Positions 36,001 through 42,000 of a stretch of DNA of 59,424 nucleotides are shown piece by piece; position 1 is the stretch's first letter, and every line of letters begins with the position of its first letter. A program made the position numbers. The stretch lies in contig JAVKIP010000019.1 of assembly GCA_031459385.1 (NCBI GenBank), positions 1 through 59,424 of the forward strand, in the 5' to 3' direction. The stretch comes from Candidatus Fervidifonticultor secundus (lineage in GTDB: Bacteria > Sysuimicrobiota > Sysuimicrobiia > Sysuimicrobiales > Humicultoraceae).

Positions 36001-39000
36001 CTTCCTCCTCGCCGATGGGCGTCTCGAGCGAGATGGGCTCCTGGGCGATCTTGTTGATCTCGCGCACGCGCTCGACCGACATGCCCATGGCCTCGGCGAT
36101 CTCCTCGGCCGTGGGCTCCCGCCCCAGCTCCTGCAGCAGCTGGCGCGAGATGCGCACGAGCTTGTTGATGGTCTCCACCATGTGGACCGGGATGCGGATC
36201 GTCCGCGCCTGGTCCGCCAGCGCCCGCGTGATCGCCTGCCGGATCCACCAGGTGGCGTAGGTGCTGAACTTGTACCCCTTGCGCCAGTCGAACTTCTCCA
36301 CGGCGCGGATGAGGCCCAGGTTGCCCTCCTGGATCAGGTCGAGGAAGAGCATCCCGCGGCCGACGTACTTCTTGGCGATGGACACCACCAGACGGAGGTT
36401 GGCCTCGATGAGCTTGCGCTTGGCCTCCTCGTCGCCCTTCTCCATCCGCTGCGCCAGCGCCACCTCCTGCGCCTGGGTCAGCAGCGGCACCTTCCCGATC
36501 TCCTTGAGGTACATCCGGACGGGGTCGTCGATCGACACCCCCTCCGCCTCGGCGATCGCCTCCTCGTCCTCTTCCTTGCCCTTGGGCTCGACGTCCTTGG
36601 CGTCCTCGACGACCTCGATACCCTGCTCCGCGAGCACCGTGTAGAGCCGGTCGACCTGGTCGACGTTCTGCTCGATGTCGGGAAACTGCTCCAGGATGTC
36701 GTCGTGGGTCACGAACCCACGCTTCCGCCCCGCCTCGATCAGCGCGCGCAGTTCGGGCGTCAGCTCTTCGGGGGGGTGCGGCTGCGCCTGTGCCTTCTTC
36801 TTCGGCATCCGTCTGCTCGTCCTGGTGGGCGTCGCCATCTTACGGGCCGCGCTTCGACGCCACGATCAACTGGGCATACGCCGCCTGGAGGCGGCGCAGT
36901 TCCTCCTCGTTCCCGCTCCGCTGCGCGGCCTGCAGCGCCTCCCACAGCCGGCGGCGCTCGGCCGCTGCGGGTTCCACCTGGGCCAGGTAGCGCAGCGCGT
37001 CGGCGATCGCCCGCTCCTTGTCACGCTCGGTGACCGGAGGCGATGCCAGCGCCAAGCGCGCCAGCAGGGCCGCGGCCTCGTCGTCCAGCCCTTCCCGCAC
37101 TGTGCCCAGATCCGCCGCGGGCGACGCCAGCAGCGCCGCGGCCAGGGCTCGATGCGTGGGCGTGGCAAACGTCTCGGCGGTGAGGACCTCAGCCACGGCC
37201 GCCCGACGGCCCGGTTCCTGCACCATCACGTGCAGGAGCAGCCGTTCGGCCTCCTCGCGGGCCCGATCGCGCCGCGGGAGTACCTCTGCCCCTTCCCCGG
37301 CCGCCGCCGTGCGTCCGGGCCTTCCCCGCGCGCGCAGGCGCTGGCGCAACGCCTCTTCGGGTACGTCGAAACGCTCCGCCAGCGCGCGCAGGTACTCCGC
37401 TCTGCGGACAGGATTCGCCACAGTCTGAATAACAGTTAATAATTCGTCGGCCAGGGCGATCTTCCCTTCCCTGGTCCTCACGTCGTGACGGCGCTGCGCC
37501 AGCTCCACCCGGTACTCGAACATCGGCAGGGCATCCGCCAGCAGCCGGGCAAACGCCTCGGGGCCCGCGCGTCGGAGCAGGGAGTCTGGGTCCTCGCCCT
37601 CGGGCAGGACCGCGACCCGGACGCCCACCTCGGCTTCCTCGAAGAGCGCCAGTCCCCGCTCGGCTGCGGCCTCCCCGGCCTGGTCCGAGTCGTAGACCAG
37701 GACGACGCGGGAGGCAAACCGTCGGAGCAGGACGACCTGATCCGCCGTCAGCGCGGTTCCCAGCGACGCCACCGCGTGCCGGAACCCGAGCTGGTGGCAG
37801 GCCAGGGCGTCCATGTAGCCCTCCACGACCAGCGCCTCCCCGACCTCCCGGATCGCCTCCCGAGCCGCCGGCAGGGCGTAGAGCACCCGCCCCTTGGCAA
37901 ACACCGGGGTCTCGCGCGAGTTCAGGTAGACCGGCTGCCCCTCGTCGAGGGCGCGTCCGCCGAAGGCGACCGTGCGTTCCTGGAGGTCGGTGATCGGGAA
38001 GATGAGCCGGTCCCGGAAGATGTCGTAGTACCCGTCGCCGCTCCCCCTGGCCTGTACCAGGCCCGCCCGTTCCAGCACCGCGGCGGCATATCCCTTGCGG
38101 GACAACGCGTCCACCAGGCCTTCCCATCCCGGCGGCGCGTAGCCCAGCCGGAACTGCCCGGCGATCTCGGCGCTCACCCCGCGCCGCCGCAGGTAGGCCC
38201 GCGCCTTCTCCCCGGTCCTGCCCTGCAACTGGGCCTGGTAGTAGTCTCTGGCCGCGTCTAGGGCCCGGTAGAGCTGGTCGCGCTCGGACGCCTGCCGCGC
38301 GGCCTCGGGCGAGGTCTCCAGGGGCACCCCGGCCCGGCGGGCCAGCTCCTGGGCGGCCTCCATGAACGTCAGGCTGCCGGTGCGCATCACGAAGTCGAAC
38401 AGATCGCCGCCGGCGCCGCACCCGAAGCAGTGGAACAGCCCGCGGTCGGGGTCGACGTAGAACGACGGTGTCTTCTCCTGGTGGAACGGGCACAGCCCTT
38501 TGTAGTACCGCCCGGCCCGTTTCAGCGTGGCGTGCTGGGAGATCAGCGCGACGAGATCCACCCGCCGGCGGATCTCCTCCTTGACTTCTGGTGTCAGCAG
38601 GCCGCGGCCCATGGCACGCCCTGTAGAACCCCGCAGGAGGGCTTTCTATGCCCGGTGGCTCTCGGCCTCTTCCTTCTGCCGTCGGGCGTCGGCCGCCACG
38701 CGCTCGGCGATGTGGGCCGGGACCGGCTCGTAGTGCGAGAACGTCGCCGTGAACGCGCCGCGGCCGCCCGTGATCGAGCGCAGGTCGGAGGCGTAGCGCA
38801 GCACCTCGGCCTGCGGCACCTGGGCCTTGACGATCGTGGTCCCGTCTCCCTGGGGCTCCATGCCCAGGATGCGCGCGCGCTTGGCGTTCAGGTCGCCGAT
38901 GACCTCGCCCATCAGGTCCTCGGGCACCCGCACCGCCAGGTCGAGAATGGGCTCAAGGAGGATCAGGCCTGCCTGCGTCGCGGCCTCCTTGACCGCCAGG

Positions 39001-42000
39001 GCCCCGGCCAGCTGGAAGGCGATGTCTGACGAGTCCACGTCGTGGTACTTCCCGTCGAACAGCGTCACGCGCACGTCCACGACCGGGTAGCCCGCCAGGA
39101 TCCCCTCGTCCAGCGCCTTGCGCACGCCCTTCTCGACGCTAGGGATGAACTGGTTGGGGATCGCGCCGCCGAAGATCTTGTCCACGAACTCGAAGCCGGC
39201 ACCCCGAGGCAGCGGCTCGATCTCGACGAAGCAGACGCCGTACTGCCCGCGTCCGCCCGTCTGCTTGACGTAGCGCCCCTGGGCCTGGGCCTTGCCGCGG
39301 ATCGTCTCCCGGTAGGGCACCCGGGGCAGCCGTAGCAGAACGTCCACGCCGAACTTCCGGCGCAGGCGCTCGGCCATGATCTCCAGGTGCGACTCGCCCA
39401 TGCCGGAGACGACGGTCTGCTTGAGCTCGGCGTCGCGGCGCACGTGGAAGGTCGGGTCTTCTTCCGCCAGCCGGTGCAGCGCGGCGCCCATCTTGTCTTC
39501 ATCGGCTTTGCTCTTGGGCTCGATGGCCATGGAGATCGCGGGCGGGGGGAAGTCGATAGGCGCCAGGCGGACCGGGTGGTCGCGCGCGCACAGCGTGTCG
39601 CCGGTCATGGTCTCGGCCAGCTTGGCCACGGCACCGATGTCCCCGGCGGGCACCTGCGGGGTCGCCTCCTGGTGCTTGCCCCGCAGCACGTACAGTTGCC
39701 CCACGCGCTCCACCTTGTCGCGCGTGGCGTTGAGCACCTGGGAGTCGGACGCCAGCACCCCGCTGTACACCCGGAAATACGAGAGCCGCCCCACGTACGG
39801 ATCGGCCATGGTCTTGAAGACCAGCGCCGCCAGCGGCGCCTGCTCGTCGGCCTTGAGTACGACCTCGTCGCCGCTGCGGGGGTGCTGGCCCGACACGCGG
39901 GCCTCGGCCGCCGCCGGCAGCAGGCGCACCATGGCCGAGAGGAGCTGCGCGACCCCCAGCCGCCGGGCGCCAGACGCGGCCAGCACCGGCACGATCCTGC
40001 CGGCCTTCACACCCGCCAGCAGCCCCCGCGCCAGTTCCTCATCGGTCAGGGTGCCAGCCTCGAGGTACCGCTCCACCAGCGCGTCCTCGCTCTCGGCGGC
40101 GGCCTCGATCAGCGTCTCGCGGGCGCCCGCGGCCGCCTCGCGCAGCTCCGCCGGCACCTCGTCGACCTGCTCCTGCCCGTCGGCGACCATGTGGGCCTTC
40201 ATCGTGACCAGGTCGACCACGCCGCGCAGGGCGGCCTCCGCCCCCACCGGCAGCTGCACCGGCACGATGCGTGGCCCGAAGCGGGCCCGCAACCCCTCCA
40301 GGGTCCGCTCGAAGCTGGCGTTCTCGCGGTCCAGGCGGTTCACCACCACCAGCCGGGGCAGGCCCCGGCGCTCGGCCAGCGCCCAGCCCACCTCGGTCTG
40401 CACCTGCACCCCGGCCGAGGCGTCAACGACGACCAGCGCGGCGTCCGCGACGCGCAGGACGCCCACGACCTCGCCCATGAAGTCCGGATAGCCCGGGGCG
40501 TCCAGCAGGTTGAGCTTGCTCTCCGCCCACTCCAGGGGCGCGATGGCGGCGAAGATGGTGTGCTTACGCCGGATCTCCTCCGGATCGAAGTCCGTCGTGG
40601 TCGTGCCGTCGTCCACCCGGCCCATGCGGTCGATGGCCCTGGCCTGGTAGAGCATCGCCTCCACCAGGGTCGTTTTCCCCGTCCCGCCATGGCCGATGAC
40701 GGCCACCGTCCGAATGCGGTCAGCACTGTAGCGCCTCAACGATCGGCCCTCCTCAATATCCTCGCGCCGGATCCACCCGATTAACCAGCGGCGCGCCGGC
40801 CAGGTAGCGCCGCAGGTTGTCGCAGAACAAGGGGATCACGCGGTCGAAGTAGCCCGGCGAGGCGCCCGACACGTGGGGCGTGATCACCACGTTCTCCATG
40901 GTCCACAGCGGGCTGTCGGCCGGCAGCGGCTCGCGCTCGAAGACGTCCAGCGCCGCCCCCGCGATCCAGCCCTTGCGCAGCGCCTCGATCAACGCGGTCT
41001 CCTGCACGATCGGCCCGCGGCCTACGTTGACCAGCACCGCCGTGGGCTTCATTAGGCGCAGGCGCCGGGCGTCCATGAGCCCGCGCGTCTGCGGCGTCAG
41101 CGGCAGCAGGATCACCACGTAGTCGGCCGCCCGCAGGACCTCGTCGGTCGCCTCGGGACCGTAGACGCGCTCGACATCGGGCACCGGTATCGGTACCCGC
41201 TTCGTTCCGATAATGCGCATGCCGAACGCCGCCGCGCGGGCCGCCAGGGCCGACCCGATGGCACCCAGCCCCAGGATCCCTAGCACCCTGCCCGCCAGTT
41301 CCTCACCCAGCACCGCCTGGCGATCCCAGCGGCGCGCCTGCTGGTTGCGCAGGGCGACGTGCAGCCGCCGCGAGAACAGCAGGATCACGGCCATGACATG
41401 CTCCGGCAGCGCCACCGTGTGGGCGCCGACACTGCTGGTGAGCGCCACCTGTCCTGCCAGCACCTCGGGGAACAGGAGCGCGTCGACCCCGGCCGCCGCG
41501 GCGTGCACCCACCGCAATCGCCTGGCCTCGGCGCGCACCGGCTCGGGGATCTGCCAGCCCACGATGACCTCCGCCTGGGGCGCCAGCTGCCGCGCGCGCT
41601 CGCGGTCGGTGGTGCAGAGCACGCGCACACGCGGGTCCACCGCCTGGATCAGCCGCACGTGGCGCTCGGCGATGGGCACCAGCACCAGCACCACGACCTC
41701 ATCGCGCGGCCCGGCCGCGTGCGGGTCACCCATGCCGGTTCTCCACCTCGACGGCGCCGGCGGCCTCGCGCAGCCGCTGGACCACGAACGCCCGGTCCAG
41801 GGCCGCCAGGAACCACCCGGCCTGCGGCCCGGAATCCTTGCCCAGGAACGCCCGGTAGATGGCGCCGAACGCGGCCGTCGGCGCGAGCCCCATCGCCGCC
41901 TTCAGGGCGTGGATGGCCGCGTGCAGGGTCTCCCCGTCCTCCGCCTGCTCCACCTCCCGGACCAGCGCCGCCAGGAACCGGCGCTGCTCTTGGGACAGCT

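Follow-up and report, generated by a model that had tools for sequence, protein, structure and literature searches.

Within the window, the whole 59,424-nucleotide stretch of Candidatus Fervidifonticultor secundus DNA analysed here, a conserved block of genes on the reverse strand begins with a class I lysyl-tRNA synthetase gene, lysS (41726..43306; PF01921, 270.7 bits), and continues with a gene of the D-2-hydroxyacid dehydrogenase family (40753..41733; PF02826, 205.3 bits), the end of which lies 13 bases before the start of a second EF-G paralogue at 38646..40739, here called EF-G2 (g01140 in the earlier note). DnaG primase (36840..38612; DNAG_N, zinc ribbon, Toprim and DnaB_bind) follows 33 bases downstream, and an RpoD-type primary sigma factor with Sigma70 regions 1.1, 1.2, 2, 3 and 4 (35708..36838) comes immediately after it, both again on the reverse strand. 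Synteny comparison shows lysS adjoining the dehydrogenase–EF-G2 pair in the in-phylum loci with sufficient flank, and dnaG downstream only in loci whose EF-G2 is at least 68% identical to this one. The string from lysS to rpoD is a placement for housekeeping expression. The other EF-G of the genome resides in the rpsL-rpsG-fusA-tuf operon on contig C26, and the second copy thus stands apart from the str operon, as had been claimed.

The EF-G2 reading frame is intact, opens with a TTG start codon and encodes 697 amino acids. All of its Pfam matches score over cut-off and together give the five-domain arrangement of the EF-G family, namely a G domain that includes the insertion between the GTP-binding motifs (GTP_EFTU, PF00009; residues 8–275, 39915..40718; 143.6 bits to a 188-position profile), domain II (EF-G domain 2, PF22042 and PF03144; residues 303–385, 39585..39833), domain III (EFG_III, PF14492; residues 397–468, 39336..39551; 108.3 bits), domain IV (EFG_IV, PF03764; residues 472–590, 38970..39326; 155.1 bits) and domain V (EFG_C, PF00679; residues 594–680, 38700..38960; 96.9 bits). 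Both tip-loop motifs of domain IV are intact, with the GGRGQYG and YHDVDSS columns conserved in the alignment. In NCBIfam the protein clears the cut-off of 583 for NF009381 ('elongation factor G') with 940 bits and that of 659 for TIGR00484 with 703 bits. It is 48% identical to the other EF-G of its own genome and, with a dN/dS of 0.13–0.22 against three in-phylum orthologues, is under purifying selection.

Several other identities were considered and set aside. As EF4 (LepA), the protein reaches 126.5 bits with TIGR01393 against a cut-off of 533.9, has no PF06421 match in the Pfam scan (E ≤ 0.001), and carries both a domain IV (EFG_IV, 155 bits) and a G-domain insertion, which EF4 lacks. Scores also remain under the cut-offs for BipA/TypA (TIGR01394, 203.7 versus 757.3 bits), tetracycline ribosomal protection proteins (NF012153, 340.2 versus 775 bits) and the NCBIfam EF-G2 equivalog (NF009377, 729.3 versus 890 bits), and it is not a member of the Bacteroides-type family NF058620 because it stays at 614.7 bits, below the cut-off of 1000, with residues 2–512 only in the best matched stretch. 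A canonical EFG I (fusA) would have His in switch II (DxPGH), where Tyr stands, and Ala in the P-loop (AHxDxGKT type), where Gly stands, and the location between the dehydrogenase gene and dnaG, outside rpsL-rpsG-fusA-tuf, is not that of the str-operon fusA.

The GTPase centre is therefore not that of EF-G1. The position of the catalytic switch-II His of EF-G1 is occupied here by Tyr84 (codon at 40488..40490), and the alignment shows Tyr in all 24 in-phylum EF-G2 rows and Tyr or Phe in 102 of 102 other EF-G2-type rows, so that the His is replaced in all 126 and retained in 9 of 9 EF-G1 rows. The P-loop of EF-G2 reads G-H-G-G-T-G-K-T-T-L, its first position being Gly in every one of the 24 in-phylum rows but Ala in the nine EF-G1 rows, and the NKxD motif reads NRxD. 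EF-G2 further shows the hallmarks by which EFG II is defined (PMC3150367), with Gly16 and Leu25 in its P-loop region, and it is phylogenetically separate from EFG I: in a FastTree phylogeny built from 129 EF-G2-type and nine EF-G1 rows, and not from the EFG II reference sequences of Margus et al. 2011, the two sets split with a starred support of 100. The in-phylum rows are monophyletic (starred, 97) and sister to an Actinomycetota clade (starred, 99). Judged by these sequence features, EF-G2 appears to be of the EFG II kind; it is old, predating the lepA loss described below, and is not specific to it. In a preprint on Mycobacterium smegmatis EF-G2, the same His-to-Tyr change accompanies loss of ribosome-dependent GTPase activity, and H88Y in EF-G1 nearly abolishes that activity (bioRxiv 10.64898/2026.05.25.727771). 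By analogy with the mycobacterial protein, EF-G2 probably binds the ribosome while hydrolysing little or no GTP in response to it.

The genome that houses this gene (3.30 Mb in 59 contigs, 97.6% complete, 5.51% contaminated) has no detectable lepA. Its best TIGR01393 match, at 104.7 bits against the cut-off of 533.9, is EF-G, and LepA_C (PF06421) gives zero matches in it even at E ≤ 10. The earlier note had conceded that a very divergent EF4 without LepA_C would be missed; the full-length TIGR01393 model and tblastn with two real LepA proteins still find none, the tblastn hits being confined to the G and II domains of IF2, SelB, EF-G, EF-Tu and EF-G2, with nothing past LepA residue 380. A census of GTP_EFTU domains returned nine matches, eight of which could be assigned through NCBIfam and/or Pfam: two are the G domains of Der, and one each belongs to EF-G, EF-G2, IF2, SelB, Era and an EF-Tu truncated at the end of its contig. 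The remaining match, of 17 positions at the end of contig C34 (22.9 bits, under cut-off), is read as a further EF-Tu stub. The inventory of translational GTPases given previously, EF-Tu, IF2, SelB and two EF-G copies, is borne out by this census, in which RF3 was not seen either. The reported absence of BipA from this genome also holds, the best TIGR01394 match being EF-G (132.8 bits, cut-off 757), the very figure that the earlier note gave. Era, Der and HflX are present.

The same state extends across Candidatus Sysuimicrobiota (formerly CSP1-3), represented by 94 metagenome-assembled genomes (MAGs), none of them closed, of 1.5–5.3 Mb. The earlier note had treated the phylum as sampled through an order; EF4 is indeed missing throughout, with the correction that the 94 genomes form one single order. 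TIGR01393 exceeds its cut-off in 0 of 94 (0 of 92 without two unpublished genomes counted in the phylum totals, G016 and G024) and in 0 of the 54 genomes with completeness of 90% or more and contamination no higher than 5%, spanning seven families and 31 genera. LepA_C likewise exceeds its cut-off in none of the 94, with one chance match of 19.3 bits, whereas both models score over cut-off in 10 of 10 bacterial control genomes. The strongest lepA-model matches in the phylum, at about 200 bits, are open reading frames of about 610 amino acids that prove to be BipA (TIGR01394, 927 and 930 bits). Detection works in these assemblies, because EF-G was recovered at E ≤ 1e-150 in 85 of the same 94 genomes, and lepA was not found in a same-genus genome of only four contigs either. 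We conclude that lepA is truly absent from this genome and from all 94 phylum genomes examined. BipA, found in 24 of 94 genomes at E ≤ 1e-100 and in 22 over cut-off, is absent from some three quarters of these genomes. EF-G2 is present in 81 of the 94 LepA-less genomes; three that are 91–97% complete (G057, G060 and G079) have neither LepA nor EF-G2 and all carry BipA, and every phylum genome at least 90% complete has EF-G2 or BipA.

Beyond the phylum, and in a wider pattern than the earlier note had described, lepA is also lacking in four orders of a class of Bacillota that includes Candidatus Fermentithermobacillus. No genome exceeds the lepA cut-off in the order of that organism (0/36) or in three further orders (0/12, 0/10 and 0/3), that is, in 0 of 61 genomes. 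Among them, Ca. Fermentithermobacillus carboniphilus (G094) has a closed chromosome of 2,316,832 bp with EF-G, EF-G2, two EF-Tu, BipA and IF2, in which LepA was not found. The EF-G2 clade also occurs alongside LepA, among others in Actinomycetota and Bacillota: LepA is present in nine of 14 EF-G2-bearing genomes outside the phylum that were tested singly, including both genomes tested from the Actinomycetota sister clade.

The earlier note had read the phylum as a natural EF4 knock-out in which the work of EF4 is either dispensable or done by the second EF-G; the phylum-wide absence upholds the knock-out, and the take-over is not supported. Such a replacement, in which EF-G2 as a GTPase-impaired occupant of the A site would do what EF4 does in ribosome rescue, in initiation or late in 30S maturation and would thereby have permitted the loss of lepA, seems to us unlikely. 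The retention of EF-G2 in LepA-less phylum genomes, its housekeeping operon context and its non-canonical GTPase centre are in keeping with a take-over, as are the presence of EF-G2 or BipA in every genome at least 90% complete and eleven phylum-specific columns, among them the NKxD-to-NRxD change and a residue beside a domain IV loop. So is the distribution in the Bacillota class, where a hand tally finds a second EF-G in 45 of 53 LepA-less versus 51 of 98 LepA-bearing genomes, an enrichment that fits a compensating role; yet those 51 genomes have both proteins, and once relatedness is taken into account only two independent pairs remain on starred branches, with a median p of 1. The clade is separate from EF-G1 and older than the loss, three high-quality genomes do without either protein, and the possession of domain IV without LepA_C is the reverse of the EF4 architecture. 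Nor was there any alignment column (0 columns) in which the two LepA-less groups have in common a residue that LepA-bearing rows seldom show.

A different, non-homologous or distant factor, such as Era, Der, HflX or, where present, BipA, could instead cover the EF4 role, which we consider possible although rather doubtful. The first three are encoded in this genome, BipA occurs in each of the three high-quality genomes that have no EF-G2, and EF4 is implicated in 30S biogenesis, a process in which redundancy of factors is common (PMC12787274; PMC12641178); against this, the present genome has neither BipA nor RF3, and of the candidates named none is singled out. That the absence is an artefact, either because assembly or binning systematically lost lepA or because its sequence has diverged beyond what the models recognize, is highly improbable. 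All 94 genomes are MAGs and EF-Tu lies at contig ends in this assembly; moreover, completeness estimates may partly adapt to the absence of lepA, because it is a bac120 marker. Yet lepA is a single-copy gene and not a repeat, the zero count holds over seven families and different record series in which EF-G is mostly recovered, six-frame searches also detect genes that were not called and pseudogenes, this genome has no GTP_EFTU protein left without an assignment and no LepA_C match even at E ≤ 10, and the closed chromosome of another lineage lacks lepA as well.

On the whole, we think it likely that EF4 was lost as dispensable, without a dedicated replacement; EF-G2 is older than that loss. 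Some observations run counter to this explanation: the evidence for the phylum comes from MAGs, this genome itself being fragmented and 5.5% contaminated; absence of a homologue is not absence of the function, and a non-homologous replacement is invisible to homology searches; and EF-G2 is kept by most LepA-less phylum genomes, EF-G2 or BipA by each of the more complete ones, and a second EF-G more often by LepA-less members of the Bacillota class.

Mycobacteria are taken to have LepA, and the EF-G2 of Bacteroides thetaiotaomicron is reported to lack GTPase activity. The latter, an EF-G paralogue described as acting in slow translocation, offers an example of how an EF-G copy can work with a weakened GTPase. 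M. smegmatis EF-G2 (EFG II; PDB 9K0Z/9K10) resembles the protein studied here in its five domains and its location outside the str operon and, according to its description, in the switch-II change from His to Tyr and a Gly/Ser-rich P-loop. Its chain 9k0z_7 matches our EF-G2 at 547 bits, with Thermus EF-G higher at 636 bits, and our protein is much nearer to canonical EF-G (48% identity with the EF-G1 of its genome) than the two mycobacterial proteins are to each other (31%, as given there); a role in stress and a lack of GTPase activity have been shown for the mycobacterial protein only. Thermus thermophilus EF-G-2 (1WDT; 517 bits), the EFG II archetype of Margus et al. 2011, shares Gly16 and Leu25 (PMC3150367) and, unlike what is predicted for the centre of our EF-G2, is reported to have ribosome-dependent and intrinsic GTPase as well as translocation activity. 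EF4 itself (TIGR01393, PF06421) belongs to the same EF-G/EF2 superfamily and has its G domain in common with EF-G2, as well as domains II, III and V, but differs in having LepA_C and no G-domain insertion or domain IV, the last as given by its Pfam architecture and Atkinson 2015.

Accounts of EF4 usually credit almost every bacterium with it. Carsonella is an endosymbiont with a tiny genome. Carsonella ruddii and Streptococcus pyogenes are termed the 'only known exceptions' to EF4 ubiquity in a 2016 RNA Biology review (PMC5207388). Those are single organisms, whereas here the absence spans a phylum with genomes of 1.5–5.3 Mb and four Bacillota orders. Our literature searches found no report of these losses, and the main text of the paper on Ca. 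F. carboniphilus Bu02 (former class DTU015) does not mention lepA. That strain parallels the phylum in lacking lepA while having EF-G and an EF-G2 that is 53% identical, and differs from the present genome in belonging to another phylum and in keeping BipA (889 bits).

Most likely, then, EF4 became dispensable and was then lost, at least twice if the GTDB placement holds. EF4 is non-essential and condition-specific (Atkinson 2015), and such a factor probably became dispensable and disappeared without a dedicated replacement; loss in the ancestor of the phylum would be the simplest reading. BipA, the other stress-related member of the EF-G family, was likewise lost in most of the phylum, and EF4 went missing in a similar way in four or more orders of that Bacillota class; EF-G2 predates the loss and is not specific to it. 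The losses may be linked to a thermophilic or aquatic ancestry, a suggestion drawn from paper abstracts and the habitat labels of sequencing runs. Members of the phylum are described in the abstracts of its papers as chemoautotrophs or mixotrophs replicating in soil and hot springs. A whole free-living phylum, together with several related heat-loving lineages, thus does without EF4, a factor usually called near-universal in bacteria.

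The genome of Candidatus Fervidifonticultor secundus (3.30 Mb over 59 contigs, with 97.6% completeness and 5.51% contamination) has no detectable gene for the translation factor EF4 (LepA), as the earlier note had claimed, with a full-length model, the LepA_C domain and tblastn all in agreement. In a six-frame search, the top match to the lepA model (TIGR01393) scored 104.7 bits and is EF-G, and LepA_C (PF06421) gave no match even at E ≤ 10. When the real LepA proteins of two Bacillota genomes were used as tblastn queries, they aligned only to the G domain and domain II of IF2, SelB, EF-G, EF-Tu and EF-G2, the second EF-G paralogue of this genome, and no alignment ran past LepA residue 380. 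A census of the GTP_EFTU domain returned nine matches, of which eight were assigned to EF-G, EF-Tu (cut by a contig end), EF-G2, IF2, SelB, Der (with two G domains) and Era; the ninth, a 17-position stub below the cut-off at the end of contig C34, is probably a further piece of EF-Tu. With all translational GTPases thus assigned, no protein remains that might be a very divergent EF4, a worry raised by the earlier note for which the census and tblastn leave no candidate in this genome. RF3 was not found in the same census, and BipA (TypA, TIGR01394) was also missing from the genome, its top match of 132.8 bits being EF-G. A coarse, motif-based census of P-loop GTPases further recovered HflX, MeaB, FtsY, Ffh and some ATPases.

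Two features of the assembly and its gene calls were seen along the way. EF-Tu is truncated where contig C26 ends; seen with the stub that closes C34, this suggests that duplicated tuf genes have broken the assembly. The Der open reading frame (contig C12, 89685–91951) encodes 702 residues, yet the Der model does not start until residue 263; the first 260 residues lie outside that model, the cytidylate kinase–Der fusion model stays below its cut-off, and the N-terminus may be an over-extended reading frame in a GC-rich genome.

The absence holds across the whole phylum Candidatus Sysuimicrobiota (formerly CSP1-3), well beyond the 31 genomes initially surveyed. Among 94 genomes, which represent one order, seven families and 31 genera and include two that are unpublished, none has a lepA match above cut-off (0/92 without the unpublished pair), and the same is true of the 54 with completeness of at least 90% and contamination of at most 5%. 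LepA_C was above cut-off in none of the 94 either, with one chance match at 19.3 bits. Both models scored above cut-off in 10/10 bacterial control genomes and, as a check on detection within the set itself, EF-G was recovered at E ≤ 1e-150 in 85 of the same 94 genomes. A genome of the same genus assembled in four contigs also lacks lepA. Open reading frames of about 610 residues that score about 200 bits with the lepA model were considered as divergent EF4 candidates and ruled out, as they are BipA (927 and 930 bits with TIGR01394).

BipA itself is present in a minority of the phylum, as proposed before: 24 of the 94 genomes carry it, 22 of them above cut-off, mostly within family f4 (16/23) and never in f3 (0/22) or f5 (0/12). 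In four cases (G004, G018, G032 and G093), the gene occurs in a lone genome of a genus otherwise without it (for example, 1/6 in genus g2 and 1/8 in g12), with scores of 775–827 bits against about 910–930 bits for the f4 copies; these lone copies could be due to horizontal transfer or contamination. The group is described as a single class and a single order whose members are facultative anaerobes and in many cases chemoautotrophic (PMC11604079), with active replication in deep soil and an aquatic ancestor (PMC11962464). Given genome sizes of 1.5–5.3 Mb across the phylum, ‘free-living’ is a fair description.

This absence stands against a literature in which EF4 is ‘found in all bacteria’ (PMC4245954), is ubiquitous save for Streptococcus pyogenes and Carsonella ruddii, termed the ‘only known exceptions’ (PMC5207388), or is reviewed as universal or almost universal (Atkinson 2015). 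The gene is a bac120 marker and was assigned in one survey to the last bacterial common ancestor. A 2025 survey of ribosome biogenesis in more than 30,000 genomes describes lepA as kept even in CPR bacteria and Mollicutes (PMC12641178), and its supplement holds zero CSP1-3 genomes and one genome of the Limnochordia. The main texts of the CSP1-3 papers and of the paper on Ca. Fermentithermobacillus carboniphilus Bu02 (PMC10215811) do not contain the term ‘lepA’, and we found no prior report of the absence described here in the openly accessible literature, with the CSP1-3 papers taken by their main text.

The loss is also wider than the phylum. The closed chromosome of Bu02 (2,316,832 bp), described as a thermophilic, flagellated and spore-forming fermenter (PMC10215811), has no detectable lepA; among the proteins with a GTP_EFTU domain are EF-G, EF-G2, two EF-Tu, BipA (889 bits) and IF2. 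Bu02 belongs to a class of Bacillota, and no lepA match above cut-off was found in four orders of that class, all of the former Firmicutes_E: its own (0/36 genomes) and those of genomes G132 (0/12), G181 (0/10) and G168 (0/3). An even sampling of the class gave 151 genomes, 99 of which have a lepA match at E ≤ 1e-60; one of these is BipA-like (206 bits), and the count used is 98 genomes with LepA and 53, about a third, without. LepA is present in Symbiobacterium, Thermaerobacter and a Limnochordales genome of the class, and a genome labelled Firmicutes UBA6811 (G273, locus L061) has no lepA match.

How often EF4 was lost depends on the placement of these lineages. In a tree of the canonical EF-G (EF-G1), Sysuimicrobiota are monophyletic (support 99, starred) and lie outside the Bacillota class, whose LepA-less orders fall near its base; by the starred branches, LepA state must have changed at least twice inside the class. 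If the GTDB placement is right, we infer a minimum of two losses, with Sysuimicrobiota accounting for one and the class for at least one. A single origin shared by both groups would still be compatible with this tree, whose base is without resolution. Four sequences from the order of G132 that were taken as EF-G1 (L177–L180) sit on a branch 1.2 long in the same tree and may not be true EF-G1; they could be another paralogue or else very divergent fusA genes.

The EF-G2 gene lies at 38646–40739 (−), starts with TTG and encodes 697 residues with the complete EF-G architecture in Pfam: GTP_EFTU (residues 8–275), domain 2, EFG_III, EFG_IV and EFG_C. The protein passes the NCBIfam models NF009381 ‘elongation factor G’ (940 bits, cut-off 583) and TIGR00484 (703 bits, cut-off 659), and stays below cut-off with both EF-G2 equivalogs, the tetracycline protection protein model, lepA (126.5 bits, cut-off 533.9) and TypA (203.7 bits, cut-off 757.3). 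It is 48% identical to the other EF-G of the genome, which scores 1113 bits with TIGR00484 and lies within rpsL-rpsG-fusA-tuf on contig C26, so that the second copy does stand apart from the str operon. Its dN/dS is 0.13–0.22 against three orthologues.

EF-G2 is part of a tight same-strand string that runs from a class I lysyl-tRNA synthetase (PF01921; 41726–43306 (−)) through a 2-hydroxyacid dehydrogenase (40753–41733 (−)) and EF-G2 to DnaG (36840–38612 (−)) and RpoD (35708–36838 (−)). The lysS–dehydrogenase–EF-G2 block is conserved at the in-phylum loci with enough flank; dnaG-rpoD follow only at loci at least 68% identical, that is, in part of the phylum, and neither context was found at the out-of-phylum EF-G2 loci compared. 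The synthetase, of a type that is less common in bacteria, keeps its synteny with EF-G2 throughout the phylum, and the slot directly upstream of dnaG-rpoD that EF-G2 fills here is the one taken by rpsU in the macromolecular-synthesis operon of Escherichia coli. Elsewhere in the window, a cluster of tRNA-Gly, tRNA-Tyr (−) and tRNA-Thr (+) at 45934–46782 marks the start of a drop in GC content from about 0.72 to 0.66–0.67 (profile of 45001–54000). Words sampled from the window were found in seven DNA and zero RNA sequencing runs; four of the runs, from hot springs and all of one study, contain at least 0.83 of these words. They may include the source sample and are not independent support.

At the switch-II position of the catalytic histidine, 9/9 EF-G1 rows of our alignment have His, whereas the EF-G2-type rows have Tyr (118/126) or Phe (8/126), without exception; here it is Tyr84 (codon 40488–40490 (−)). 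The NKxD motif has become NRxD through Arg135 (codon 40335–40337 (−)) in 24/24 in-phylum rows and in this phylum only, one of 11 phylum-specific columns that also include a Pro following the Tyr and a Val for His after the first domain IV loop. The P-loop of EF-G2-type rows begins with Gly or Ser, not Ala, and has Leu after GKT[ST], which correspond to the Gly16 and Leu25 given as hallmarks of EFG II (PMC3150367, section 17), and both domain IV tip motifs are retained. A FastTree phylogeny of 138 rows separates EF-G2-type from EF-G1 sequences (100, starred) and places the 24 in-phylum EF-G2 rows in a single clade (97, starred), sister to 14 Actinomycetota rows (99, starred); Bacillota EF-G2 rows make up a separate clade that intersperses LepA-less with LepA-bearing genomes. 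Rows L125, L157 and L161, wrong-strand translations on a 4.9-long branch, were disregarded in the tree and left out of the alignment, which keeps 126 EF-G2-type rows. Among solved structures, the protein matches Thermus EF-G (636 bits) ahead of 9K0Z (547 bits) and Thermus EF-G-2 (517 bits), and we assign it to the EFG II kind of paralogue, as a member unusually near to canonical EF-G. It shares its His-to-Tyr change with Mycobacterium smegmatis EF-G2, reported as a stress-specific factor without ribosome-dependent GTPase and recycling activity, and an H88Y change in EF-G1 is reported to nearly abolish its GTPase (bioRxiv 10.64898/2026.05.25.727771). EF-G2 of this genome is predicted to hydrolyse GTP poorly.

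The earlier note read the group as a natural EF4 knock-out whose tasks were dispensable or taken over by the second EF-G. The knock-out stands, and a take-over by EF-G2 is not supported and appears unlikely. In its favour, EF-G2 is kept in 81 of the 94 phylum genomes (a hand count that includes fragments in G076), all phylum genomes at least 90% complete have EF-G2 or BipA, and a second EF-G, tallied by hand as any second match at E ≤ 1e-120, is found in 45/53 LepA-less against 51/98 LepA-bearing genomes of the class sample. Once corrected for kinship, however, that association comes down to only two independent pairs on starred branches (median p = 1), too few to test. Furthermore, the EF-G2 clade is older than the loss and occurs together with LepA in 9/14 out-of-phylum genomes tested singly, its nearest relatives in the tree included, and three LepA-less genomes (G057, G060 and G079; 91, 96 and 97% complete) have EF-G1 only. 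The domain architecture of EF-G2 is opposite to that of EF4, and no alignment column is common to both LepA-less groups and rare in LepA-bearing rows.

A broader and rather speculative reading, which we regard as unlikely, is that EF4 was lost repeatedly, or once very early, across thermophile-derived Terrabacteria (all Sysuimicrobiota and at least four former Firmicutes_E orders), and that the retention of a probably non-hydrolysing His-to-Tyr EFG II or of BipA in every phylum genome at least 90% complete would reflect redundancy among A-site-binding factors of the EF-G family that work late in ribosome maturation or in quality control. In that case, the LepA-less lineages might be used as a natural genetic screen for EF4 function.

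The best-supported account is an ancestral loss of a dispensable EF4 with no visible dedicated replacement. EF4 would have become dispensable, lepA would have been truly lost in an ancestor, and BipA would have been lost too in most of the phylum. In the organisms studied, EF4 is described as non-essential and condition-specific (Atkinson 2015). The papers and sample labels trace the LepA-less lineages to hot springs, coal fires or other thermophilic sources, which would suggest relaxed selection on factors important under cold or ionic stress.

These results carry a practical warning, as marker sets that contain lepA and typA yield completeness values that are too low for these lineages. They also bring a well-conserved addition to the poorly understood EFG II paralogues with Tyr in place of the catalytic His. 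The LepA-less lineages provide independent comparison sets for genes, rRNA features and habitats that co-vary with the loss of a factor whose physiological role is still disputed. A natural knock-out throughout a free-living phylum with genomes of 1.5–5.3 Mb, and in four Bacillota orders with one closed genome, indicates that EF4 is dispensable in the long term outside reduced symbionts.
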